Origin: Alphaproteobacteria bacterium
Lineage (GTDB): Bacteria; Pseudomonadota; Alphaproteobacteria; JAJTHO01; CANGXP01
NCBI GenBank assembly: GCA_947457935.1
Contig: CANGXP010000001.1
Span: forward strand, 4,065-68,064
Length of the DNA: 64,000 nt
Direction of reading: 5' to 3'
In this document: piece by piece, positions 20,034 to 32,147 of the stretch
Numbering within the stretch: the stretch's first letter is position 1
Layout of the letters: every line of letters begins with the position of its first letter
The notes under the pieces: model-generated
Database searches by the model: none
Told to the model about the DNA's origin: nothing
The model's input: the letters and a program-made list of their open reading frames with translations, nothing else
Translations under genes and position numbers: made by a program

Positions 20034-21281
20034 TTATAGTGTAGGCGTATTGAAACGAATTAATCGTGGTTTTAACAAAAGCATGTACGCGGCAGGATCC
20101 TCTGAATATGAAAGACCATATAACAATAATGGATTTTCAACCGTATGAGAGAAACTCAGAGAGACACTGTTTTTTGGTGTCATCCCCTTCGTATCGCACG
20201 ATGCTTTATTTGGATTTTGCATTGTCATGAAAAGATTTGTTGCCACGTCCACGTCCTGCGGCGTGCTCTGTGCTGTAACCGTTATAAGTCCCAAGGGGCC
20301 TGTGTCCGTAGGTGATTTACAATACGGCACCTTCGGCACATCACCCATAGAAAAGGTCAGCGGGGAAGCAGTCATCATCGTCACAATACCTGCGTCAATT
20401 TTGGTTACACTCATACCGTAGGGCGCGAAAACACTACGAAAATCCTCATTTGCTAACGCCCCTTGAAATACCCCCACACCAGAATTTGGGTCATGCGCTA
20501 TTTTTTCTAACCCCATCAAGCGCCAATCCAGCGGTTTGGTAGGCGGCATATCAAACCGCCACAATACAGCTTGATAGGCTACAACCATCTTTTCGGCTCG
20601 CAATTGTTGTAAATAGCTCTTTACGGTCGAGATACTGCCCCGCGTCAGCTGAAAAGACATCACCCGCGTAGACGCGTCAAACTCAATTTTTTTTGCACCC
20701 AAACTCTGTACTGTATTGATGATGCTTTCATAGGGGGCTTTAAGAATGTCAGGCGTTTTAGAGGATCTATTATTCCCTCCCATGTACCCCAAGGGCGGCA
20801 TAATGACGTTATACGTCTCAACACTTTCAATTTGTAAAACGCCTTGGTTCAAACGATATACAAATGCGCCTTCAGCACTAAGTTGCTCTAAGGCTGTTGC
20901 AAAATCACGCGGTAAGGACACTGCACTAAGTTTTTTATCCTGTACCGTATCAGAAATATACAATCTATACGGCACGTTCTGCATCAGCCGCAACAACACG
21001 TCTGAAAGATAGGCATCTTTTAGTGTTATGGGCGGGATAGTGGTATTGGGCAGCGGCTCTGAAACATATGCGGCCTGTAGCGCAAAAAAATTCTTTGTTG
21101 CAAGGCTGGCACGCTCTGCAATCGGCGGTATGAATTTTTTCTTATCAAAAAGCATGTCACGCGATTTTTCACTGCTTACCGCTGCTGTAACGGGTGCTTT
21201 TGTATCAACAGAAACGACCTTACAGCCCGTTATCGCAAGGATACAACAGAGTAATCCTATTTTGTGAAATCGCATCATCAT
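20034..21281 (-). CDS. Secretin-like outer-membrane lipoprotein (PilN/BfpB-like N-terminal domains, shortened C-terminus)
   Basis: Lipobox AITGC at Cys20; ITLKDAYLSDVL...FATALEQL...YRLNQGVLQI resembles a secretin N0/STN domain; VVAYQAVLWRF...LDW resembles the start of a secretin core; by-eye recognition only. Confidence 0.55.
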   Translation of the reverse strand: MMMRFHKIGLLCCILAITGCKVVSVDTKAPVTAAVSSEKSRDMLFDKKKFIPPIAERASLATKNFFALQAAYVSEPLPNTTIPPITLKDAYLSDVLLRLMQNVPYRLYISDTVQDKKLSAVSLPRDFATALEQLSAEGAFVYRLNQGVLQIESVETYNVIMPPLGYMGGNNRSSKTPDILKAPYESIINTVQSLGAKKIEFDASTRVMSFQLTRGSISTVKSYLQQLRAEKMVVAYQAVLWRFDMPPTKPLDWRLMGLEKIAHDPNSGVGVFQGALANEDFRSVFAPYGMSVTKIDAGIVTMMTASPLTFSMGDVPKVPYCKSPTDTGPLGLITVTAQSTPQDVDVATNLFMTMQNPNKASCDTKGMTPKNSVSLSFSHTVENPLLLYGLSYSEDPAAYMLLLKPRLIRFNTPTL

Positions 21282-21322: not shown

Positions 21323-22630
21323 CTACCGCCCAATCAAAGGTTCTTGAACGGGCACAGGCGTTGTTGGCACCGATGCACCAGCGCTCGTACTTACAGGCGC
21401 TGAACGGATTTGTGACGGTAACGATGGTGCAATAGAGCCTTTTGGCTTGTCTTCAAACAAATATAAATCATCATCGTTTGTAATCTTATTCCCTGTCACA
21501 CCCACGGGTGTTGAAGAGTACACACACACCACACGCGAACCGTTACGCAGGGTAAAGTTGCCAATTGCTTCAGCAATAAAAATATTCCCTGTTGACCCTG
21601 CAGTGCGTGTATTCACCATGGTGTCAACCCCATCAACCACACGGCTAATAACAGGCCTCCGCACGGTATCTGCCTTATCGCCATAATCAAAATATGTCCA
21701 AATACCATCCGTAAACACACGCAACGGCGCAATTTCAATATCTTCAGGTGTTGGCGCAAAAATCTTCAAATCAAAACGGAGATTCTCAGGACTAAATGCA
21801 ATTTTGCGAATGTAGTCAGGCGGTGTCACAATATTACTCGGCGTTGCCGCAGCACCAGACATCCCCGCATCTGTTGAAGACGGATTGGGTTGCGCATTAC
21901 CACCAAGTGGGTTTTGCGCGGCACTGCCTGCAGCAACATACACTGTAAAGTCTGTAATTTGCGTTGAATTCCACCCCTCAGAACGTACATAAAAGTTATA
22001 AATATTTCCCGATGTCCCAATAATAGTCATATTGGTATCAGCCCCTGAGTGACTCGGGCGCACAACCAAGATATTTTGCTTTACGCGTGTGGCTTCAAAC
22101 ACCATCGTATCGCCGAGAATAATCCGCTCCACGTTTTCCCACGCTGGTAGCTCAATGGTTGTGGTCATAAATTCGCGGGTACGAATCGGCATAACAAAAT
22201 CAGGTCGCCACACAAAACGCATAATACCAGGTGCCGTCTGCCCTGTGGAAGCAATCGGACTATCCCATTTTTTTTGCAATGCCCCAACAGGCAACGTTGA
22301 GCTACGTGTCATGGTGGGGAATTGACCTGATGCTTGACTATTAATATCTTGCTCTGTTCTAGCCGCCAACGGACTAGGCCCCGAAGAAGGAGCAGAGAAT
22401 TGTTGCGCTGGATCATTGAAATTTGGCACAGGGGCGGCACCGAATCCTTGGCTTGCTCCCGTCGCAGGATTGCCTAATGGGGGACGAATTTGTGCAACAG
22501 CAGTGTGTGAGAGAATACTGCACACAAGAAATCCGCTCAAAGAAATAAGGGCGGATTGTTTTTTAAGAGAACAAATGTTTTTCATAAAGATATCGCTCTT
22601 TTTGTGATTAATATTTTTAGTTTTGGGCAA
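21323..22630 (-). CDS. virB9: Type IV secretion outer-membrane core protein VirB9/TrbG
   Basis: Signal peptide, IRTREFMTTTIEL, ILGD, TNMTIIGTSGNIYNFYV, PLRVFTDGIWTYFDY, TLRNGSRVVCV. Confidence 0.88.
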   Translation of the reverse strand: MPKTKNINHKKSDIFMKNICSLKKQSALISLSGFLVCSILSHTAVAQIRPPLGNPATGASQGFGAAPVPNFNDPAQQFSAPSSGPSPLAARTEQDINSQASGQFPTMTRSSTLPVGALQKKWDSPIASTGQTAPGIMRFVWRPDFVMPIRTREFMTTTIELPAWENVERIILGDTMVFEATRVKQNILVVRPSHSGADTNMTIIGTSGNIYNFYVRSEGWNSTQITDFTVYVAAGSAAQNPLGGNAQPNPSSTDAGMSGAAATPSNIVTPPDYIRKIAFSPENLRFDLKIFAPTPEDIEIAPLRVFTDGIWTYFDYGDKADTVRRPVISRVVDGVDTMVNTRTAGSTGNIFIAEAIGNFTLRNGSRVVCVYSSTPVGVTGNKITNDDDLYLFEDKPKGSIAPSLPSQIRSAPVSTSAGASVPTTPVPVQEPLIGR

Positions 22631-23369
22631 TGCTGTAGTCCAACACTGTAAAGCCTAAAGGGTTAAAATATTGTTCTGCCAGTGCAACATTTCGGGCGAC
22701 ATAATCAACACGTAGTTGCGCCCTCCATTTTCCTTTTAACAAAACATTCCCCAGCCTATCTGTGTCAGTCGTTACATATTCTACCTCAACGTAGTTTTGG
22801 CTTTTGCTCACCGTGCTTGTAATGTCTACACTACGGCTAATGCCTTTTTGCTGCAGCTCTTGATATGGCTGATTAATCGACATCAAAAACGTATTATACT
22901 CCGCTTCAGGCATACGATATTTCAGATACTCAACCCAGCGGCGTTGTTGATCTGTTTGATCCAAAATAATTTCTTCCCGAACCTTTACATATTCACCTGC
23001 CATTTTCTCTGTGAACAGTTGAATCCCTGCTTGCCCTTTAATAAAAGGCTGAATTTGTACTATTTGCTCGTTTTTATCGTTGAATGTCACTAGCATCGGC
23101 TCAATTTTTTTGAGCGGTACCAAGGCATATACCGTCAACACCAAAACAATATTCAGCAACATGCTCATGTAAAACGCGACCGCAAACACACGCGTTGTCC
23201 ACAAATATCGACGCCCCTCCAGCACAGGAATACGCACATCTTTGGGGTACGCGCCTAGCGTATCTTTATGATCGCCATTAGAAGCAGACTTTAACAAAGG
23301 ATCAATCCCCTCTTGCGGTGCAACGGGTCTGAAATATCCTTTAAGCTTTTGTCCTAGGTTCTCACTCAT
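22617..23369 (-). CDS. virB8: Type IV secretion inner-membrane protein VirB8
   Basis: Single TM followed by LVPLKKIEPMLV, EYVKVRE, and C-terminal NPLGFTVLDY. Confidence 0.88.
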   Translation of the reverse strand: MSENLGQKLKGYFRPVAPQEGIDPLLKSASNGDHKDTLGAYPKDVRIPVLEGRRYLWTTRVFAVAFYMSMLLNIVLVLTVYALVPLKKIEPMLVTFNDKNEQIVQIQPFIKGQAGIQLFTEKMAGEYVKVREEIILDQTDQQRRWVEYLKYRMPEAEYNTFLMSINQPYQELQQKGISRSVDITSTVSKSQNYVEVEYVTTDTDRLGNVLLKGKWRAQLRVDYVARNVALAEQYFNPLGFTVLDYSIAQN

Positions 23370-23370
23370 A

Positions 23371-23562
23371 TTATGATTGCTTCTGCCATCCGTTATAATT
23401 TTGCGGTACTTCTAAGCACGCACAAGGACTCCGTTTTAAATCATCATTGTCGCGTCCAATCCCCACAGGGTCGGGCAATGTTTCGCTGCCACGGACAAAA
23501 TCACATCCAGATACAAGCAACAACGCTGCTACGCCGCACCAGAGATATTTTTTGTTTTTCAT
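23371..23562 (-). CDS. virB7: Small lipoprotein, VirB7-like
   Basis: 63 aa, lipobox LVSGC at Cys20, KRSPCAC motif, position immediately upstream of virB8. Confidence 0.7.
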   Translation of the reverse strand: MKNKKYLWCGVAALLLVSGCDFVRGSETLPDPVGIGRDNDDLKRSPCACLEVPQNYNGWQKQS

Positions 23563-23599
23563 AAAGACTCCTGAGTTATTTCTATTGGTTTAACAGGTA

Positions 23600-23607
23600 A
23601 TGGTTAA
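23600..23607 (-). promoter_or_regulatory. TTAACCAT CtrA-type half site upstream of virB7
   Basis: Plus-strand ATGGTTAA, about 40 bp upstream of the virB7 start; short motif, could be chance. Confidence 0.3.
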
Positions 23608-23656
23608 AATAATCCTTATGTTGCTTCCGCATCACCAAAATTCTTGAACAACATGC

Positions 23657-23787
23657 CATAACTATTCCAAAACAAAATTAGCTTCTGGCAAAAACAACTG
23701 CAATCGAGCGAATATTTACATCTTGATAGATGAGTGAGGTTAAGGAAAGTTTGCAGTAGTGAGTAATTTTGTCTTGGAGTAACTATA
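23657..23787. mobile_element. ~130-bp palindromic MITE (RPE-like), copy 2, decayed, inside the T4SS locus
   Basis: Ungapped match to 15125-15255 (94/125 identical by hand count over 15131-15255); stem pairing retained with compensatory changes. Confidence 0.75.
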
Positions 23788-23842
23788 TCAGAAAACATCT
23801 TAATTTAATGGTATACAAAAATATAAATTTTTGCAAACCAAA

Positions 23843-23858
23843 AGTGATTTATATCACA
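23843..23858. promoter_or_regulatory. CRP/FNR-like palindrome AGTGA-N6-TCACA
   Basis: One mismatch to TGTGA-N6-TCACA; 13 bp (TTTATATCACAAT) are repeated at 30844-30856 upstream of the first pilin gene. Confidence 0.4.
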
Positions 23859-23868
23859 ATAAAAACAA

Positions 23869-24891
23869 CTAGTACTGCCTGTCAAAATGTTCTCTATTAA
23901 TTGTCTGCATACTTTTTACAGGGGCGCATACAGAATGCATGGCTTCCATGGTTTGCTTCAAAAAAACACGTTCTTGTTTTAGTGCATTGAGGTTCACAAG
24001 ATCTTGGCGCACACACCCAGGCAAAACAGTCGGCTTATCTTTGACAGATGTATCAGGCGCAATACATGGCTTCATAGAATTTTTGATAAGCTCGCTCATT
24101 ACCTTTTTAAGATGCTCTACATAAACAGGAATATTTGACAAATACGTTAGAGATGCCGCCGCACAATTTAAATTTTGCTGCTGTAGAACTGCTCTTACGC
24201 ACCAATCTTTCCGCGTTGTCTCCGCTGGCGAATATTGGCTTTTCGCGCTCCCCCTGCCCTGCTCATCGTAATAACCGTAAAGCAGCGCAGTCCCCAAGAC
24301 ATACTTCGTCGCACATTGTTTAAACTGCTCTGTTTTCTTATCTGTACCACAAATTGTATCCAGCGTGGTTGATTGCGAAACTTCTTCAATACTACGCAAA
24401 CAAGAAGAAGGACTGGTAAGGTCAATTAAATCTGTGTTTGGCCCTTGCGTGGCAAGTTCTCTTTTTTGTGCTTCATGCCCCAAATTGAGCACGGAATCAG
24501 GATTCTTTAAAACTTCCTGCAGTCCGTCAGGTGGCGGGGAAGGTAAAGTTTTAACAACACTTTCTCCCCATATTTTAGATTTTCTCTCTTCATCTTTACG
24601 TTTCTCCTCGTGCAATTTTTTTTGCTCTTCAGCCGTAATCTCTTTTGATTTATTGACAATATAACGACCTACATCAAAAATACAGATAGCACGCGTACCG
24701 CAAATATTAGGGCACTTCATAAACAACATAATCTTTTCCCCAGGAGGGAAATAGCAAGATGGAATAGCAGCTAATGCCCGGCAAACAACAGGACAAATGA
24801 AGAACTGACCGCTTTCTGCACGTTTTGGGGGCATCACGATAAACGCAAAGCATACAATAACGATACATAATCTTGTTAGGTTGTTAAGCAC
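23869..24891 (-). CDS. Secreted Cys-rich hypothetical protein in the T4SS operon (340 aa)
   Basis: N-terminal signal peptide, many Cys residues; C-terminal motifs shared with 24916-26526. Confidence 0.7.
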   Translation of the reverse strand: MLNNLTRLCIVIVCFAFIVMPPKRAESGQFFICPVVCRALAAIPSCYFPPGEKIMLFMKCPNICGTRAICIFDVGRYIVNKSKEITAEEQKKLHEEKRKDEERKSKIWGESVVKTLPSPPPDGLQEVLKNPDSVLNLGHEAQKRELATQGPNTDLIDLTSPSSCLRSIEEVSQSTTLDTICGTDKKTEQFKQCATKYVLGTALLYGYYDEQGRGSAKSQYSPAETTRKDWCVRAVLQQQNLNCAAASLTYLSNIPVYVEHLKKVMSELIKNSMKPCIAPDTSVKDKPTVLPGCVRQDLVNLNALKQERVFLKQTMEAMHSVCAPVKSMQTINREHFDRQY

Positions 24892-24915
24892 GTATTTGCC
24901 CTTTTATTGCCTTGC

Positions 24916-26526
24916 TTATCGACATTCTGTGGGGGTTCCGATTAACCCTTTAATGCCTTCACAGGCAGTGCAAAGAGCAGTCACCTCCCCCATTGCCAAA
25001 TCTGCCGTCAACCCATAAAACTCGATAGCGGCAAGTGACTGAATATCACCCCGAACGCTTCCAGAATTCGCCACGACCTCTGTTAAGGTAGGACATAACG
25101 ATTTAGGCAAGTTTTGCCCTGCAACAACACATTCTCCAGAATTGGACACCAATTGCTGCGCTTTAATGGCGCTATTATTGACATAATTCAGAGAAGTGGT
25201 CGCACATTTCAAAGCACAGTTACGGGCGGCATCTAAGCGATACCGCGTTACTGTTGCTTGGCATTCTGCCTTAGGCGCATTACTGCCTCTCCCCGTCAGT
25301 CCCTTCTCAATAGCAGCATACATCTTATCTGCTGTTGCTGCACCTGTGTCAGCACCTCCAGACAGCTTCTTGTCCTTAAAGACTTTTAGCTTGCCAGAAT
25401 TATTTTGATCACTACCACCCGCATTAGGATTACTAATATCAAATCCTGGATTAAGGTTTATACTCGCCTCTGCAGCCTTTAATGTAAACTGAGCTGGGTC
25501 AGAATTCTCTCCACCGTTAAATGGGCCCATTACAGAAATAATCGTGCCTGCAATCTGCTGCGCCGTTGTAATGGGGCTTCCACCTGATCCTATTTGTGTA
25601 AAAGCGTTTGTAAAAACTTGGATACTTGAAAAAACTACATTAATCAAACTTTGGGCCTGCGCCTGAAAATTTCCAAGATCTGTAGCAAACTGTTTTAGGC
25701 CAGCGTCCCCTGTAATTTCGCCAATAGCGCCTGTAAAAAGCTGAACTGTACTCAGTGCTTGCAATCCTGTGTCCAAAATTCCTTGAGACGAGTTAGCAGA
25801 AAAACCATTCGGAGTACTCCCCCCAAACCATTGAGGGTTCTCGCTACGGACAGACGCCTGAAACGACGTTTCACCATATCTGCCAAGCGAATGTGCCATG
25901 AATTTTGCAAGATCAACAGGCGGTGCAGTTGTGCCTAAAACGCTGTTGATCCGCTTTTGATTTTTACACTGCTCAAACATTGATTTGAGCTGCTGTGTCA
26001 TTGTCATTAACTGCTGAATATTTGTAACGGTATTTGACGGATCACTAACGAAAACGCCTAAAATGCCAAGGAATGGCCCTAATAGACTGAATATACCTGC
26101 TGCAATATTCAATAAGTCGGAAATAAATCCGGGTGTCATGCAAATCAGTTGGCTCAGATACGGATTATCCGCAAAAAATTTATCAAAATCGGGTAGATCC
26201 CATTTTCCTTCCGTGCCCGTTAATTTTGGGACAAGATCGGATGGAACAAAACTAATCCCCACTTGCCCTGGTGCGGGCGGCCCTATTTGAGGCGCTATGC
26301 TTAAATTTCCTGAAAACGTTGCAGATGTGGCTGCATTCGGAACAAAAACAGTCGGCTGCGAGGCAAAATTAATAACACTGCCAACTTTAGCATCAGGATT
26401 CAGTTGTCCGTTTGCATCAACAAGAGGCACAGCAGGCAGAGCCCCCTGCGCCGCCATCGCCACAGGGGCACCGTGCAAAAACAGTGATATAGCAACTAAT
26501 AATACGGCAATACAACGATGGAACAT
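24916..26526 (-). CDS. Secreted hypothetical protein in the T4SS operon (536 aa), possibly VirB5/TrbJ-like
   Basis: Signal peptide, hydrophobic hairpin, NIQQLMTMTQQLKSM coiled segment, Cys-rich C-terminus. Confidence 0.7.
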   Translation of the reverse strand: MFHRCIAVLLVAISLFLHGAPVAMAAQGALPAVPLVDANGQLNPDAKVGSVINFASQPTVFVPNAATSATFSGNLSIAPQIGPPAPGQVGISFVPSDLVPKLTGTEGKWDLPDFDKFFADNPYLSQLICMTPGFISDLLNIAAGIFSLLGPFLGILGVFVSDPSNTVTNIQQLMTMTQQLKSMFEQCKNQKRINSVLGTTAPPVDLAKFMAHSLGRYGETSFQASVRSENPQWFGGSTPNGFSANSSQGILDTGLQALSTVQLFTGAIGEITGDAGLKQFATDLGNFQAQAQSLINVVFSSIQVFTNAFTQIGSGGSPITTAQQIAGTIISVMGPFNGGENSDPAQFTLKAAEASINLNPGFDISNPNAGGSDQNNSGKLKVFKDKKLSGGADTGAATADKMYAAIEKGLTGRGSNAPKAECQATVTRYRLDAARNCALKCATTSLNYVNNSAIKAQQLVSNSGECVVAGQNLPKSLCPTLTEVVANSGSVRGDIQSLAAIEFYGLTADLAMGEVTALCTACEGIKGLIGTPTECR

Positions 26527-26579: not shown

Positions 26580-29027
26580 TCAAGTTGAATCTAAATAAAT
26601 ATTGAGCCAATCGGGGCCTGCATCGCGCATCAACTGCTCTGCAAGGCTTCGTGAAGCCTGATCTGAATAAAACACCCGAATTAAGGGACCCAGCGCATTC
26701 AAGTTATTGTCTAAAATAACGGACTCACCCGTTGCTCGTTTCATCAAAACAGAATAGCGCATCCCCCGCGCACTTGGTAACTTGCCTTTTATATACGCCC
26801 ACTCACGGTCTGTTAAACCCCAATCGGCATACTCGCGCTCTTGCGCTTGGGGGTTTTGAAAGAAGAACGTGGTTTGTGCTTGTCCGCGAATGGCTTCACC
26901 CAATCCTGCTTGCACAATCGCTTCAGGACGTTGAAAGGCGGAGATAATCGCCGAACTCTTTTTGCGATATTCTTGCAACATCTGCATAAAATAGTTGCGG
27001 AAAATCGGGTGCTTCACCACAGGTTCTGTTTCATCGATAAAGATGAGCGCAGGGGCTTGTAATTCACTAATCGCTGCCTGAATACGGTGCATCAGGTATA
27101 AAATAACTGCCCGCGCCAAATCGTCATGCTCATAAATCCGCGTAAAATCAAGAATAACAAGGCGAGTGGATGTTAAATCTAGTGTATCTTGCTGCGCATT
27201 AAAAATTTTGCCATACACAGCAGGATCAACCCATTTATTCAATCCCTTACGCAGCGGACGTGCCTTGCTGAAACATGCATCATAAATATTCGCGAGAGAC
27301 CGTTTTTCAAACGGCAGTCCCGGGTTTTCAAACGCTGCTTCAATTGCAAAACCAATTTCTTCAATCGAATCAGGGTCTTCGCATTCTGATAACGCTTGTA
27401 AGAAGGCACGCAAAAACGATCTATTTTGTACGTTGTCGGTACATTGGAAGGGATTCAACGCTGATTCCGTGCCCTCCATGTCCGATCCTTCAAAGGTAAT
27501 GTAACTGCCATTCACCGCATTACAAAAAATGTACGCGCCCCCATGTCTATCCACCATGTAACAGCGTAATTTTTCATGGCGCATTGCCATGGCGGTAAGG
27601 AAGTTGATGAGCGTGGTTTTTCCACTCCCCGTAGGGCCGATCGCCACCGCGTGTGCAACCGCCGCCTTTGCTTCACTAATATGAAACTGAAAGGCGTACG
27701 CCGTACCCGAAGACGTGCGGAACGTTGTAATAGGACCATCCCCCCAATCAGAATTGCGCAGTCCAATTGGCGGGCGTTCTAAGGTTAAGTGATTCGCTAT
27801 GTTGCGTGAAAAAAGTTTATAGGGTCTTGGCCAAATTTTATAGCCGGGGAACTGACAAAACCAACTTGCTTGCGCTGCTGCGCTTTCGTGCACAGGGGAA
27901 ATCCCAAAGCCTGTTGCAATTTGCTTGATCTCAGATTCCACCAAATCAAGCTCTTCTTGGGTTTTTCCGTACGCAAAAATCGTCAAGGAATACGCGCACA
28001 TTGCTTGCGCCGAATCACTATTTCCCTCAATCCGATCAATCGCATCTTCAAACTGGTTCACAGCACCGGGGCTAAAACGCTGCGCCATCGACAATCTGTA
28101 TTGTTGCGTCACGGTGAACGCTGCTTTCGTCTTGCTCCACGGCTCAATGGCGTGCATCACCACAATTTCGCCATGCACTGTGTTGATCGAGTTAATAAAC
28201 GCTTCGTAGGTAAAATCACCTAGCGAACGGATACCTATCACCGCACACAACAACTGTTTGTTACCGCTTCTAAAGGTCACAAGACCGTTATCCCCGCCAA
28301 ATTCCACCTGATCCGCGCATAACGCATCAGAAACCCCCGAACCAATCCCTCCTGGTTTGGGTTGTGATAGCGGACTAATCAGCCGTGCTAAAAATGCAAG
28401 GGGGCGCTTTTCCGGTTCAGGATCATGCTGTGACATTTCCTTACAACCATATTTATTCAAAATGGTTTTGGTAACCTCCACCGAACCCGCTAATTTTGAA
28501 AGCGGATTTCGCACCTTACCCGATATCGACAAAACAAGAATCTGGCGATTGTTATAGGACTGACTAAAACTATTATTCCACCGCCTTGCAATCTCGCGCA
28601 ACACAGGATTAGAATGAGTTGATTTTGCAACTAGATCCACACGTTCTCGTAATAGAAAAGAACGAATCGCCACTTCACTATCAGACAAGGTGTCAACCCA
28701 ATCCTTGCGCGCAAGAAACAAAACTTCTCTCTCGTGAGGATTGAGGAAGGTATCGTCTAATCCCGCAACTTCCAAGCATTGCGCCAGTGTGCCGTCCCTG
28801 CATGCCAAGGTCTTACCATCAGGCAAAACGCGATCAAACGGCAAAAAATCTGCTAAGCGTGTTTCTTCAGGGGCAGGCAATACCAGCTTTGAAACAGCGG
28901 GCATAATAAATCCCACAAAAGCCGCTGCACCGCCGATAATGCCAATAATCCCTGCTATAAGCGCAGTGAGGCTAAACGTTTCTGTGAACGCACTAATAAC
29001 ATCGGGAGTCGCATACTCAAGGGACAT
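26580..29027 (-). CDS. virB4: Type IV secretion ATPase VirB4
   Basis: 815 aa, AHAVAIGPTGSGKTTLINFL Walker A, LIFIDETE Walker B, ISAFQ; follows virB3. Confidence 0.93.
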   Translation of the reverse strand: MSLEYATPDVISAFTETFSLTALIAGIIGIIGGAAAFVGFIMPAVSKLVLPAPEETRLADFLPFDRVLPDGKTLACRDGTLAQCLEVAGLDDTFLNPHEREVLFLARKDWVDTLSDSEVAIRSFLLRERVDLVAKSTHSNPVLREIARRWNNSFSQSYNNRQILVLSISGKVRNPLSKLAGSVEVTKTILNKYGCKEMSQHDPEPEKRPLAFLARLISPLSQPKPGGIGSGVSDALCADQVEFGGDNGLVTFRSGNKQLLCAVIGIRSLGDFTYEAFINSINTVHGEIVVMHAIEPWSKTKAAFTVTQQYRLSMAQRFSPGAVNQFEDAIDRIEGNSDSAQAMCAYSLTIFAYGKTQEELDLVESEIKQIATGFGISPVHESAAAQASWFCQFPGYKIWPRPYKLFSRNIANHLTLERPPIGLRNSDWGDGPITTFRTSSGTAYAFQFHISEAKAAVAHAVAIGPTGSGKTTLINFLTAMAMRHEKLRCYMVDRHGGAYIFCNAVNGSYITFEGSDMEGTESALNPFQCTDNVQNRSFLRAFLQALSECEDPDSIEEIGFAIEAAFENPGLPFEKRSLANIYDACFSKARPLRKGLNKWVDPAVYGKIFNAQQDTLDLTSTRLVILDFTRIYEHDDLARAVILYLMHRIQAAISELQAPALIFIDETEPVVKHPIFRNYFMQMLQEYRKKSSAIISAFQRPEAIVQAGLGEAIRGQAQTTFFFQNPQAQEREYADWGLTDREWAYIKGKLPSARGMRYSVLMKRATGESVILDNNLNALGPLIRVFYSDQASRSLAEQLMRDAGPDWLNIYLDST

Positions 29028-29310
29028 ATTTTCTTATTTTTGGTGTTTTTATAAGGTTTTTCGTACTTTTTCGACTTACTGCCCATGCTTGTATTAATGT
29101 TGTCATATGCGGCTCTCGTGCACCTTGTGCCGCAATGAACAAATGTGACAAGAAAAAACTAGCAATAAAAATTAGAGGGCTAATTCCTGCCAAGCCCAAT
29201 CCATACACCATTAACATCGCATGCACACCCATATTTGCCATTGCAGGCATTTGAGGAGCCCAAAACATGGTGGAAGGCAGAGCAACAACGCGGAGAATTT
29301 TTTCTGGCAT
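29017..29310 (-). CDS. virB3: VirB3-like membrane protein
   Basis: 97 aa, ALPSTMFWAP, two hydrophobic segments, REPH motif; overlaps the virB4 start. Confidence 0.75.
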   Translation of the reverse strand: MPEKILRVVALPSTMFWAPQMPAMANMGVHAMLMVYGLGLAGISPLIFIASFFLSHLFIAAQGAREPHMTTLIQAWAVSRKSTKNLIKTPKIRKYVP

Positions 29311-29382: not shown

Positions 29383-30039
29383 TTACTTTCCTGTCCCCAC
29401 AAAAGCCTCAACAAAACTTACGGCTACCGCAATAATTGCCATCCCTGCCGTGGTTGCGAATATCCAACTCCACCGAAACTTCCCGAAAATACCCAAAATC
29501 CCTACGGAAATGATTGATACCGCTGCCGCTGTATACAACAAACTTTTTGCATCTTCTGCAATATAGCTGTTGGTTCTTGTTAGCGTGTTTGAAACATCCT
29601 CAAACTTTCCAGTGCTTGTTGTATTGGCATTAATATACTCGATCCAATCTCGCGTGTACATTGCAATAGAGAGTAGAGCAAGTCCACCAATCAGCGCGAA
29701 CGCCCAACTCCACGGCATTTTACCTGTCATTGCCATGCCGCCCACACCCAACATTCCTAAAACAGCCAGACTTTTCAAAATGGGAATGGACTTTTCTAAA
29801 ACGTCGTTCCCCTGCGTTATCGCAACACCAAATACATTCGCTGCATCCGCAGGAGACTCAATCGTTAAGAAACTCAACATCATCGCAAAAAACAACAGCA
29901 TTCTATGACGCAGATGTCGATCTTGGCTATTTTGTATCACAACAGGATTCATCTTAGGTGCAAACGCGCCGCGCACAAAAAGCGTTGCGAGAAGCCCTGT
30001 AAAACAAAAATACACCCATTGTTCCATATCAAACCACAC
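29383..30039 (-). CDS. virB2: Tandem double VirB2/TrbC pilin-domain protein
   Basis: Two pilin-like hydrophobic hairpins: MTGKMPWSW and IFGKFRWSW. Confidence 0.7.
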   Translation of the reverse strand: MWFDMEQWVYFCFTGLLATLFVRGAFAPKMNPVVIQNSQDRHLRHRMLLFFAMMLSFLTIESPADAANVFGVAITQGNDVLEKSIPILKSLAVLGMLGVGGMAMTGKMPWSWAFALIGGLALLSIAMYTRDWIEYINANTTSTGKFEDVSNTLTRTNSYIAEDAKSLLYTAAAVSIISVGILGIFGKFRWSWIFATTAGMAIIAVAVSFVEAFVGTGK

Positions 30040-30043
30040 TGTC

Positions 30044-30385
30044 CTATTTCACAACAAACTGCATATAATAATATGTTCCCGATATTAGGGCTGTCGACCC
30101 GATAATACTGCCTACCCACGGCCAGCTCATCTTCCCAAACATGCCAAGTGCACCTACACCCAGCGTGGCTAATCCTGCCAATCCATATGCAATATTTTTC
30201 AAATAAACAGGTACGTTTTGAAAGCGTGGCGTAACGTAGTGAAGTGGCGTCTTCACTGCCTCGTTTTTATAATCCACGCTATAATTTGCAAAGCAATCAG
30301 TACTCAACACGCACACAAAAGCACAAAATAAAACAAAGAATAATAAGATGCGGAGTTTTTTTTGTTCAATTCTAAACATCATCAT
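30044..30385 (-). CDS. virB2: VirB2/TrbC pilin
   Basis: Signal peptide, then IAYGLAGLATLGVGALGMFGKMSWPW hairpin. Confidence 0.75.
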   Translation of the reverse strand: MMMFRIEQKKLRILLFFVLFCAFVCVLSTDCFANYSVDYKNEAVKTPLHYVTPRFQNVPVYLKNIAYGLAGLATLGVGALGMFGKMSWPWVGSIIGSTALISGTYYYMQFVVK

Positions 30386-30429
30386 AATTCCTAAATAACG
30401 CTAGTATGGCTTTGGGGTTACAGGTGAGA

Positions 30430-30834
30430 TTACGGTGGAGTCACAAAGGTATACGTTTGATTTTGATTTTCTGGTGTTTCAAACGCATCTTTTTTCCCTG
30501 TAATATACTCAACACCGTACTGTGCAGATGCCATCATCAATAATGCCCCCACAAGAATAAAAAACCTGTTCCACCGAAAACGCCCAAAAAACGCCATTGC
30601 GCCCGTTGCCGTTGCCCCTAGTCCTGCGAGTCCGAAAAGCATTTTTTGGCTATATTGCGTACCATTTTTGACGATTTTCTCTCCATTATCAAAAACATTC
30701 TTGAAGGGATCTTTTGTTATAGCCGCCGATGGCGGCGTAGGTGCAACGGGCGCAGCATTAGCAGATGCACCTATAGCACAGGCAACAATAACAACAAAAA
30801 AACAGAGCATGAACGCCTTTAGATTATTTTTCAT
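30430..30834 (-). CDS. virB2: VirB2/TrbC pilin
   Basis: Signal peptide, then LFGLAGLGATATGAMAFFGRFRWNRF hairpin. Confidence 0.75.
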   Translation of the reverse strand: MKNNLKAFMLCFFVVIVACAIGASANAAPVAPTPPSAAITKDPFKNVFDNGEKIVKNGTQYSQKMLFGLAGLGATATGAMAFFGRFRWNRFFILVGALLMMASAQYGVEYITGKKDAFETPENQNQTYTFVTPP

Positions 30835-30903: not shown

Positions 30904-30918
30904 TTAATTTTCTTTTAA
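30904..30918 (-). promoter_or_regulatory. Full CtrA-type site TTAA-N7-TTAAC upstream of the T4SS operon
   Basis: Minus strand reads TTAA AAGAAAA TTAAC, 70 bp upstream of the first pilin ATG. Confidence 0.6.
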
Positions 30919-32147
30919 ACAGGATCATTCTGTTGATGCCGCATTGCCTTTGCCGTGATTGCCAACAAACAAACAATACTAATCATCGGCGTTTTGGCGG
31001 CAATTGAGTTATTTGTAAACGCAATCACCACAAAAAGCGCTAACGCTATTTTTCCCTCAACAGCAAGCCCCTTAAGCAAATACCGATATAAAATGGAAAA
31101 ACCCAAAATATATACGCCAAACAGTATCGCGCCAAAACGTATAAACAACGCAACCCAGCCATTTTCAATGGTCCATGGCAATCCTGAAAAAGCGATGAGT
31201 GCGTTAACTTTTTCCGTGTTCGTGCCTAAAAAAATCTCTGCTGTTGAAATATACCTAAATATTTCAAATAATTGCAATCTCGAGGACGCACTATCATCCC
31301 ATGCGAGTCGTTCAACGAACGCCTGCCCCGCTGTTGTTCCCAACATCACATAAATCAACACGAAAGGCGCAAAAAACAATACGCCTGTTATCACGGTTAG
31401 TGTTTGTAAATTAAGGTGCTGCCGCTTTGCCGATGCAAAAAAATAGTATATGCCATACCCCAGCAATGCAATCGTCAGCAATATCAACGATGATCGCCCG
31501 CCAAAAGCGATCATTCCCATGTAAAGAACGCACACAATAGCAAGAACATGGAGGGGTTTTTGCACATAGCCCAACACAAAAAATATCGCAACCGCCGTCA
31601 GCGCTGCATTTGTTAAGGGATGCCCCATAAACGCCGTTGCACGTTTATCGTAAATAATATCAAGCCCTTGAATGGTATAGGGGAATAGTCGCGCCCCTGT
31701 GGCAACTTCCGCCATCCCCACCAGCGAATTCACCACAAAAACGCTCAGCAAGATTTTAAAAATCACCTGTTGCTGTGCGGGTGTTAAATGACTCACCAAC
31801 ACCACCACCACAACGGGCATAAATAAAGAATCAATAACAAACGATATTTCTCCTGCCCCTACCAACAATACGTTAAAAGCAAAGGTTACCAGCGTACACA
31901 GACCATAAATCAATACAGGGCGCGGGGCAACTTCCGCAAGATACGCCTTGTTTTGCGGTTGCCAGACAAAAAAGAACAAACACGCTAGTACGCCTAGGGA
32001 AAAATAGGTTGCGGGGTGGATCTTAAAAACCGCGCTGCCACCCGCCGTACCATATGGCCAGCCAATCATCGCCAGCGCAAACGGCGACACCATCACTATC
32101 GACAAGACAGCAACGGTAATCGCATAAAAAGAGAGTTTTTGCTCCAT
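30915..32147 (-). CDS. VpsF-family / O-antigen-ligase-like polytopic membrane protein
   Basis: KIHPATYF, RATAFMGHPLTNA, SASSRLQ, IENGWV; about 11 TM helices. Confidence 0.65.
   Translation of the reverse strand: MEQKLSFYAITVAVLSIVMVSPFALAMIGWPYGTAGGSAVFKIHPATYFSLGVLACLFFFVWQPQNKAYLAEVAPRPVLIYGLCTLVTFAFNVLLVGAGEISFVIDSLFMPVVVVVLVSHLTPAQQQVIFKILLSVFVVNSLVGMAEVATGARLFPYTIQGLDIIYDKRATAFMGHPLTNAALTAVAIFFVLGYVQKPLHVLAIVCVLYMGMIAFGGRSSLILLTIALLGYGIYYFFASAKRQHLNLQTLTVITGVLFFAPFVLIYVMLGTTAGQAFVERLAWDDSASSRLQLFEIFRYISTAEIFLGTNTEKVNALIAFSGLPWTIENGWVALFIRFGAILFGVYILGFSILYRYLLKGLAVEGKIALALFVVIAFTNNSIAAKTPMISIVCLLAITAKAMRHQQNDPV

Follow-up and report, generated by a model that had tools for sequence, protein, structure and literature searches.

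In a type IV secretion system (T4SS), VirB5 is the pilus component that comes into contact with the target cell. It is also the one most often reported as missing from atypical systems, namely rvh, Ptl and, until recently, F. The locus studied here raises the same question. It lies on contig CANGXP010000001.1 of an uncultured freshwater alphaproteobacterium, in a 64,000-nucleotide stretch of DNA (the window, to which coordinates refer unless another source is named), where a single long T4SS operon on the minus strand carries two cysteine-rich proteins directly after virB4. A first-pass annotation had placed these proteins in the virB5/virB6 slot and had proposed disulfide-stabilised pilus-tip proteins, possibly an adhesin and a pore-forming translocator. 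Is either of them VirB5, or VirB6, or neither? Our comparisons of gene order and sequence profiles indicate that both are probably very divergent members of the VirB5 lineage, that is, minor pilus or stalk-tip proteins.

Two genes between virB4 and virB7

Both open reading frames (ORFs) exist exactly as first described, and all of the motifs quoted for them are found in the translations. P0002 (536 residues, 24916-26526, minus strand) occupies the first slot after virB4, and P0001 (340 residues, GTG start, 23869-24891, minus strand) the second. The operon begins with a VpsF-like gene, three VirB2-type pilin genes, virB3, virB4, P0002, P0001, a spacer and a virB7-like gene, and continues with virB8, virB9, a gene for a 415-residue lipoprotein, virB10, virB11 and virD4. 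The pair lies between virB4 (26580-29027, minus strand; PF03135) and the virB7-like gene and virB8, which is the virB5/virB6 position claimed at first. The reading of P0002 as a divergent, enlarged VirB5-like protein draws on its ORF, on synteny and on colinear profile matches at both ends, and that of P0001 as a Cys-rich VirB5-like paralogue on its ORF, homologues and hhalign comparisons.

Among 5.8 billion clustered proteins each of the two has 8-9 homologues, all annotated as 'hypothetical' and all with one shared gene arrangement beside mfd, and both families are confined to one genus among the 14 genomes of the GTDB order. An exhaustive scan of 1.84 billion representative proteins with a profile hidden Markov model (HMM) of the P0002 family returned only the family's own three clusters, and jackhmmer searches from single proteins (Z = 10,000) did not reach beyond the sister-genus orthologues. 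Scanning the whole genome with PF07996, the VirB5 family, at E ≤ 1 gave no match, P0001 and P0002 included, and no further VirB5 candidate was found in this 99.6%-complete genome (1.83 Mb). Pfam at E ≤ 10 across all family members gave no meaningful match, with one of eight reaching PF07996 at E 0.83. Sequence and profile searches of the PDB returned non-significant matches only, the sole one for the P0002 family being TraC at E 6.3.

Profile links to VirB5 through related loci

We used related T4SS loci as stepping stones. A scan based on a VirB4 alignment gave 39 loci, with VirB4 identities from 97% down to 34%. The closest plasmid VirB4 is that of Microvirga pMVF16-3 (37.5% identity, versus ~23-26% for all others). 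On this plasmid three 'hypothetical' genes lie between virB4 and virB7/virB8, and the first of their products (273 residues) and all four of its homologues match PF07996, with a best E-value of 1.4e-4. In Telmatospirillum and other Rhodospirillales, virB4 is followed by genes for a VirB5-like protein of 270-293 residues (leader and GYPVID...), a protein of 524-628 residues and a second VirB5-like protein of 232-237 residues. In metagenome-assembled genomes (MAGs) labelled Holosporales, Holosporaceae or Alphaproteobacteria, the first-slot protein has 517-595 residues and starts with a leader and PVPVID or IPTID, the second-slot protein is Cys-rich with 279-397 residues, and the third has ~510-525 residues. 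The sister genus, whose VirB4 is 79% identical, encodes post-virB4 proteins of 519, 461 and 471 residues. In many of these related loci virB4 is followed by two or three VirB5-like genes. A tblastn search of plasmids with the Telmatospirillum-type VirB5 gave no match.

The VirB5-like proteins form the reference set, and two comparisons mark this set as VirB5. Of the 11 members tested, 10 have PF07996 as their leading Pfam match or as a recurrent one (best E 1.4e-4), and for most members it ranks first. The set also matches an alignment of IncN TraC and Lichenicola VirB5 at E 3.7e-6; the TraC used is identical to PDB 1r8i (E 1e-124). The P0002 family matches the 519-residue protein of the sister genus at E 1.4e-8 over residues 109-514, and the first-slot group of 535-595 residues, which starts with a leader and PVPVID, at E 1.5e-5. 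In each of three profile comparisons, the segment NIQQLMTMTQQLKSM, singled out at first as TrbJ/VirB5-like, falls on helix alpha1 of VirB5. Residues 151-225 fall on the leader, PVxD and alpha1 of 17 VirB5-like first-slot proteins (E 2e-4, hhalign probability 44-46%), the alpha1 region matches all VirB5-like proteins of the related loci (E 1.4e-5, probability 80%), and residues 160-197 fall on TraC 28-65 in the same register (E 8.2e-4 with the TraC/Lichenicola alignment). At the other end of P0002, residues 423-503 match positions 198-258 of the VirB5-like profile, where its C-terminal helices lie (E 9.3e-4); here the loop GECVVAGQNLPKSLCPTLTEVV is an insertion and ...svRGDiQsLaAIe stands opposite ...dlRGDlaanaAIm. 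The N-terminal match scores 39.5 versus 13.1 ± 2.6 for shuffles (maximum 23.6). The C-terminal match scores 30.2 versus 11.0 ± 2.0 (maximum 18.3), with 10.9 for the reversed profile. P0002 combines homology to alpha1 and to the C-terminal helices with a Sec leader, as judged by sequence, and a position adjacent to virB4. The family of Microvirga VirB5 taken alone gives E 0.075 against the P0002 family and 0.47 against the P0001 family, and a signal appears with the broader profiles only.

P0001 is linked to VirB5 through the second slot. Together with its sister-genus orthologue it matches the second-slot proteins of distant relatives over its full length (residues 1-321; E 7e-6, probability 84%), with a score of 46.8 versus 12.3 ± 2.1 for shuffles. 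Between those second-slot proteins and the VirB5-like profile, in turn, E-values range from 1e-6 to 1e-9. To the C-terminal helices of VirB5, P0001 is linked only by way of its similarity to P0002. A C..P..C...[VIF]D pattern is common to the P0001 N-terminus and the second-slot proteins of relatives, and the C-I-F-D of P0001 is probably equivalent to the P-V-x-D of VirB5. The P0001 family showed no significant match to a 319-residue protein of OY970150, although common motifs are seen by eye.

Architecture of P0002 and P0001

Both proteins have Sec-type leaders, as first noted. Judged by eye from the sequence, each has a hydrophobic N-terminus and an A-x-A/S-type cleavage site conserved in homologues, and the small residues at -3/-1 (AMA before A in P0002, AES before G in P0001) are kept in all of them. 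The P0002 signal peptide (MFHRCIAVLLVAISLFLHGAPVAMA followed by A; residues 1-25, 26452-26526, minus strand), assigned by hydropathy, is nearly invariant in all eight family members. It is followed by a variable Pro/Gly-rich linker (residues 26-105, 26212-26451, minus strand) with many indels in the alignment and a ratio of nonsynonymous to synonymous substitution rates (dN/dS) of ~0.77. The hydrophobic hairpin proposed earlier is real: a conserved hydrophobic helix-turn-helix at residues 127-163 (26038-26148, minus strand), seen in hydropathy, conservation and hhalign, is the only hydrophobic span after the leader. The VirB5 alpha1-like segment VFVSDPSNTVTNIQQLMTMTQQLKSMFEQCKNQ..., placed by hhalign, covers residues 157-226 (25849-26058, minus strand). 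The hairpin lies within the most constrained part of P0002, with a dN of 0.09 versus 1.0 in the preceding linker. Hairpin and alpha1 together have a dN/dS of ~0.03, and the linker and the acidic region (341-414) are near neutral.

Residues 227-414 (25285-25848, minus strand) comprise, from the alignment, Gly-rich amphipathic helices and then a variable acidic/Gly region, with dN/dS of 0.17-0.55. They are homologous to the 405-residue ORF L013_405 and to the first-slot proteins of relatives, and they appear to be a lineage-specific insert. The Cys-rich C-terminal module (residues 415-536, 24919-25284, minus strand) holds eight of the ten Cys that are invariant in the family alignment, together with CATTSLNYVNN (441-451), SVRGDIQSLAAI (490-501) and R492-G-D494.

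The R-G-D motif, which lies in a C-terminal helix, is invariant in the P0002 family. In CagL, an RGD motif binds integrin. CagL of Helicobacter has been named as a VirB5 homologue (PMC9259494), and P0002 shares the motif with it. The VirB5-like proteins of Microvirga and Telmatospirillum, which are free-living, likewise keep R-G-D or R-x-D, and P0001 has R-Q-D. The motif in P0002 is therefore most likely structural rather than an adaptation to integrin binding.

The order of motifs at the P0002 N-terminus is unusual for VirB5, in whose canonical form PVxD comes after the signal peptide. In the hhalign comparison the hairpin falls opposite the leader of VirB5-like proteins, and VFVSD (158-162), the motif aligned to PVxD, is placed after this internal hairpin. 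A poorly conserved, decayed VPLVD follows the true leader at residues 33-37. At this place, immediately behind the leader, the orthologue of the sister genus shows an unmistakable IPVFD, and it has a second motif, VPVRD...NTQQLIELQK, downstream of a hydrophobic stretch. This layout could have arisen if part of the 5' end was duplicated and the extra leader was retained as the hairpin, an idea that we regard as tentative.

P0001 begins, after its leader, with an N-terminal Cys knot (residues 28-75, 24667-24810, minus strand) that contains six invariant Cys and ends in C-I-F-D. Its C-terminal module (residues 225-340, 23872-24219, minus strand), common to P0002 by BLASTP, hhalign and HMM, carries CAAASLTYLSN (243-253) and CVRQDLVNLNAL (293-304), the latter including C293-V-R-Q-D297. 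The family alignment has 14 invariant Cys, and hydropathy reveals no hydrophobic span in the mature protein. The genome encodes two copies of DsbA as well as DsbB. These enzymes and the even counts of invariant Cys in both families (10 in P0002, 14 in P0001) are indirect evidence that disulfides may stabilise the proteins.

Relationship between the two proteins

The shared C-terminal motifs that suggested paralogy belong to a similarity that is weak but above chance, by pairwise and profile alignment and by shuffles. It is limited to a module of ~90 residues (P0002 439-528, P0001 241-331). BLASTP gives E 0.024, and hhalign of the two families gives E 0.0033, with a score of 31.2 versus 16.3 ± 2.8 for column shuffles, none of 200 of which reach it. 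With one sister-genus orthologue added to each family, the hhalign E-value becomes 1.5e-4 (probability 52%). An HMM of the P0002 C-terminal domain, run against the genome's 10,875 stop-to-stop ORFs, matches only P0002 and P0001 (the latter at E 0.01). By these alignments, P0002 and P0001 are related through the shared module. The pair is not the product of a recent duplication. P0002 and P0001 represent separate slot families, each of them conserved over a broad clade of T4SS loci in alphaproteobacteria.

Alternative explanations

Several observations weigh against a VirB5 origin. Neither P0001 nor P0002 has a Pfam, NCBIfam or PDB match at E ≤ 0.1, and the VirB5-like reference set itself always stays below the gathering score of PF07996. 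The links to VirB5 are profile-profile matches whose E-values lie between 1e-3 and 1e-5 and whose hhalign probabilities span 24-80%. For P0001 the direct match is weak (E 0.003-0.02), albeit with C-I-F-D opposite P-V-x-D in the expected register, and its assignment depends on transitivity between alignments. The reversed-profile control for the N-terminal match of P0002 scores 25.3 (real score 39.5). The alpha1 region is Q/L-rich and heptad-like, and the same VirB5 profiles pick up coronavirus heptad repeat 1 (HR1) coiled coils in the PDB. At 536 and 340 residues, both proteins are well above the about 220-300 residues of VirB5. AlphaFold2 models from shallow alignments are all-helical, with predicted local distance difference test (pLDDT) values of 34.6 and 41.3, too low for use of the fold.

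The pair could instead be T4SS accessory proteins peculiar to this lineage and located in the periplasm or outer membrane, such as a scaffold, chaperone-like or surface-layer protein, that do not descend from VirB5 and resemble it through helical, Q-rich composition. The absence of a curated family or PDB match, the confinement of the family to one genus, the matches of VirB5 profiles to unrelated coiled coils and the non-negligible reversed control fit this explanation. Against it stand two independent, colinear matches, N- and C-terminal, in VirB5 order, and the same register with three different VirB5 profiles. Furthermore, the orthologues in relatives begin with the canonical leader and PVxD of a VirB5 N-terminus, and the gene stands at the virB5 position. 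We consider an accessory origin unlikely.

Sec leaders, many Cys capable of forming disulfides, a hydrophobic hairpin and very fast evolution could also describe Sec-exported substrates of the T4SS, secreted in two steps as pertussis toxin is via Ptl, or effector- or toxin-like proteins. However, free-living bacteria conserve equivalent genes at this slot in their conjugative plasmid systems (Telmatospirillum, and Microvirga with its MobA/MobL relaxase), which argues for a structural part of the machine. The profile links to VirB5 point the same way, and no enzymatic or toxin domain was found with Pfam or NCBIfam. A role as substrate or effector is very improbable. A reading of one of the pair as a degenerate VirB6, the inner-membrane base of the stalk, is close to excluded, since it has gene order alone in its favour (the second gene is at the virB6 place of the Agrobacterium archetype), whereas P0002 has one hydrophobic hairpin, mature P0001 has none, neither matches PF04610, and a 429-residue protein elsewhere in the genome passes the PF04610 cut-off, with partial TrbL matches on two contigs.

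That neither protein is VirB6, as first stated, agrees with at most one hairpin and no PF04610 match. A system without VirB6 was rejected as well: at least three TrbL/VirB6-like genes lie in two clusters on other contigs, among five large membrane-protein genes. VirB6 candidates are present elsewhere in the genome, and the slot proteins therefore need not serve as VirB6. One cluster (C53:1041-6127) encodes a protein of 1266 residues that combines a Peptidase_M23 domain with a partial TrbL match, and the 429-residue protein, whose PF04610 match is full and above the cut-off; the other (C37:8081-13454) encodes proteins of 654 (partial TrbL match), 647 and 484 residues. The two clusters correspond to L067 and L068. 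The VirB6-like protein fused to an M23 peptidase on C53 is unusual.

A pilus-tip or stalk-tip role of the VirB5 type, as originally proposed, is the best reading of the pair, because the two proteins are related to each other by the shared C-terminal module, occupy the virB5/virB6 position and are not VirB6, and because of the alpha1 alignment.

Evolutionary rates

Identities between this genome and two congeners differ strongly along the operon. They are 97-98% for VirB3 and VirB4, 90-92% for VirB10 and VirB11, 88% for VirB8, 83% for VirB9, 69-72% for the pilins, 64% for the 415-residue lipoprotein, 58-65% for P0001 and 52-60% for P0002. P0002 and P0001 are the fastest-evolving genes of the operon, with 15-25 times the dN of virB4. 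Taken as a whole, dN/dS stays below 1, and dS is saturated in the pairs compared, so these values give no verdict on positive selection. The rate pattern is as expected for exposed pilus parts, and the contrast with VirB4 marks P0002 and P0001 as likely specificity determinants.

Other features of the operon and related loci

Upstream of virB4 (all on the minus strand) are the gene for the VpsF-like polytopic protein (30915-32147), the three VirB2-type pilin genes (30430-30834, 30044-30385 and 29383-30039) and virB3 (29017-29310). In the pilin region (29383-30834), a 218-residue VirB2-type protein has two TrbC matches, that is, two pilin domains in one protein. The pilin set consists of three genes and four pilin domains.

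A 306-bp spacer (23563-23868) separates P0001 from the virB7-like gene (23371-23562, minus strand). The latter encodes a 63-residue lipoprotein with the lipobox LLVSGC and precedes virB8 in relatives too. Just past the P0001 stop, the palindrome TGTGATATAAATCAC (23840-23868, minus strand) has the form TGTGA-N6-TCAC(t), which is CRP/FNR-like. It is kept in a congener as TGTGACTAATATCAC (L003), and conservation is lost in the middle part of the spacer. Another conserved block, TTTTAACCATTACCTGTTAA, is found ~40-60 nucleotides upstream of the virB7-like start. Judging from their sequence and position, the palindrome and the second block may be control sites for a virB7-virD4 sub-operon. Further downstream, virB8 (22617-23369, minus strand) matches PF04335 at E 2.7e-24. 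The 415-residue lipoprotein, encoded between virB9 and virB10 (20034-21281, minus strand), is without a family match; its position is kept in relatives, where it has 475-668 residues, and it is fast-evolving.

A third-slot gene (471-525 residues, 6-17 Cys) stands between the P0001 equivalent and virB7 in loci L029, L034-L039, L043, L045, L046 and L060. It is absent from the genus studied here, and no remnant of it was detectable in the spacer at 23563-23868. In Microvirga pMVF16-3 (L027, 16384-19251) and in Telmatospirillum loci L047-L052, L062, L063 and L065, two to three VirB5-like genes annotated as 'hypothetical' stand in a row. These loci, plasmid-borne or chromosomal T4SSs of free-living alphaproteobacteria, have no recognisable virB6 at the post-virB4 place, where Microvirga has only a 228-residue protein with three transmembrane segments. 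On OY970150.1 (L013/L033; L013 10410-12258), a 225-residue ORF with a leader and VPVSD overlaps a 405-residue ORF by 47 nucleotides in a different frame. The 405-residue ORF is leaderless and homologous to P0002 258-524, and a frameshift or an assembly error may have divided what is a single gene into these two ORFs.

Comparison with known systems

VirB5, TraC (pKM101) and TrwJ (R388), all of PF07996, resemble the proteins studied here in being encoded directly after virB4 and in having a Sec leader and [PV]-V-x-D followed by a long Q/L-rich helix. P0002 aligns with them in alpha1 (E 2e-4 to 8e-4) and in the C-terminal helices (E 9e-4), and like them it is predicted to be all-helical, at low pLDDT. 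It differs from them in being two to three times larger, in having no Pfam model match and in its 10 invariant Cys. Unlike them, it also has an N-terminal extension, a hairpin at the place of the canonical leader and a large Gly-rich insert that replaces the globular appendage. An enlarged VirB5 equivalent has a parallel in TraH of the F plasmid, which has been proposed and localised as the VirB5 equivalent at the F-pilus tip and was missed by sequence and fold searches (bioRxiv 10.64898/2026.07.31.741991). The likeness of TraH to P0002, as an enlarged secreted VirB5 equivalent to which ordinary searches are blind, is one of description, and TraH belongs to a T4SS of the mating-pair formation class F (MPF_F), in contrast to the VirB/MPF_T-like system here.

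In the Trw system of Bartonella, amplified copies of trwL (VirB2) and trwJ (VirB5) encode variant surface-exposed pilus parts and host-specific adhesion (PMC2883598, PMC3406051). The present operon likewise has several pilin genes and more than one VirB5-like gene, and these are among its fastest-evolving parts. In contrast to Trw, the two VirB5-like genes represent ancient, structurally distinct slot families rather than tandem copies of recent origin, neither virB6 nor virB7 is amplified along with them, and VirD4 is present.

The rvh T4SS of Rickettsiales has been described as lacking only virB5 (PMC2653234). Like rvh, the system studied here is chromosomal and vertically inherited, and it has multiple large VirB6-like paralogues encoded at a distance from the remaining vir genes. 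Each of the order's 14 genomes has a single virB8. Except in this genus and one other family, housekeeping genes flank virB4 and virB8, which indicates that the system is scattered, and in sister families of the order the two genes are split from each other. By analogy, the scatter and the multiple large VirB6 paralogues recall rvh. Unlike in rvh, virB5 candidates are present, and the nearest VirB4 relatives are those of Holosporales-labelled MAGs, Telmatospirillum and Microvirga plasmids. The relatives are lake MAGs titled Alphaproteobacteria, Holosporales or Holosporaceae. A tblastn search of the genome with a MobA/MobL relaxase protein gave no match, although the search was not exhaustive; this fits, from the gene content, effector translocation rather than conjugation.

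Proposed role of P0002 and P0001

VirB5 forms a pentamer on the VirB6 base of the stalk and goes to the pilus tip, and its N-terminal part, which is similar to pore-forming proteins, may touch the membrane of the recipient (PMC9259494). Paralogues of TrwJ are host-specific adhesins (PMC3406051). By analogy with these proteins we infer tip, adhesin and membrane-insertion roles for the pair. P0002 would be the VirB5 equivalent of the system. Its layout would consist of a cleaved Sec leader, the fast linker, the hairpin, alpha1, the Gly-rich insert and VirB5-type C-terminal helices, into which a Cys loop, presumably disulfide-bonded, and a tail would be inserted. P0001 would be a member of a separately conserved 'slot-2' VirB5-like family, with its N-terminal Cys knot and the shared Cys-decorated module. 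Both would be exported by Sec, oxidised by DsbA/DsbB, assembled on a VirB6 base encoded elsewhere and carried outwards on the VirB2 pilus to the target cell. There P0002 may form the tip complex, with the hairpin as a candidate membrane-inserting or contact element, and P0001 may serve beside it as another tip subunit or as an adaptor. The variable regions may act as recognition surfaces and, together with the several pilins, would set target specificity.

A broader interpretation, which we put forward as speculative and on balance doubtful, is that VirB5 was not lost from the 'VirB5-less' chromosomal T4SSs of host-associated alphaproteobacteria, having diverged instead, until no longer recognisable, into large, Cys-rich tip proteins with several paralogues. 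The P0002 hairpin, at the place of the ancestral signal peptide and possibly derived from a partial 5' duplication, would then breach the target membrane, eukaryotic or bacterial. If this is true, hidden VirB5 equivalents should exist in the rvh systems of Rickettsiales too.

The stepping-stone loci connect two orphan proteins to VirB5 and bring out a clade, comprising Microvirga plasmids, Telmatospirillum and Holosporales-like MAGs, with two or three VirB5-like genes after virB4. This gives an annotation for hypothetical proteins and a route to hidden VirB5 equivalents elsewhere. Most likely very divergent, enlarged relatives of VirB5, P0002 and P0001 evolve faster than any other part of this secretion machine, which is fixed in the chromosome of an uncultured alphaproteobacterium from freshwater, and they provide candidate host-recognition and membrane-contact parts in this small-genome lineage.

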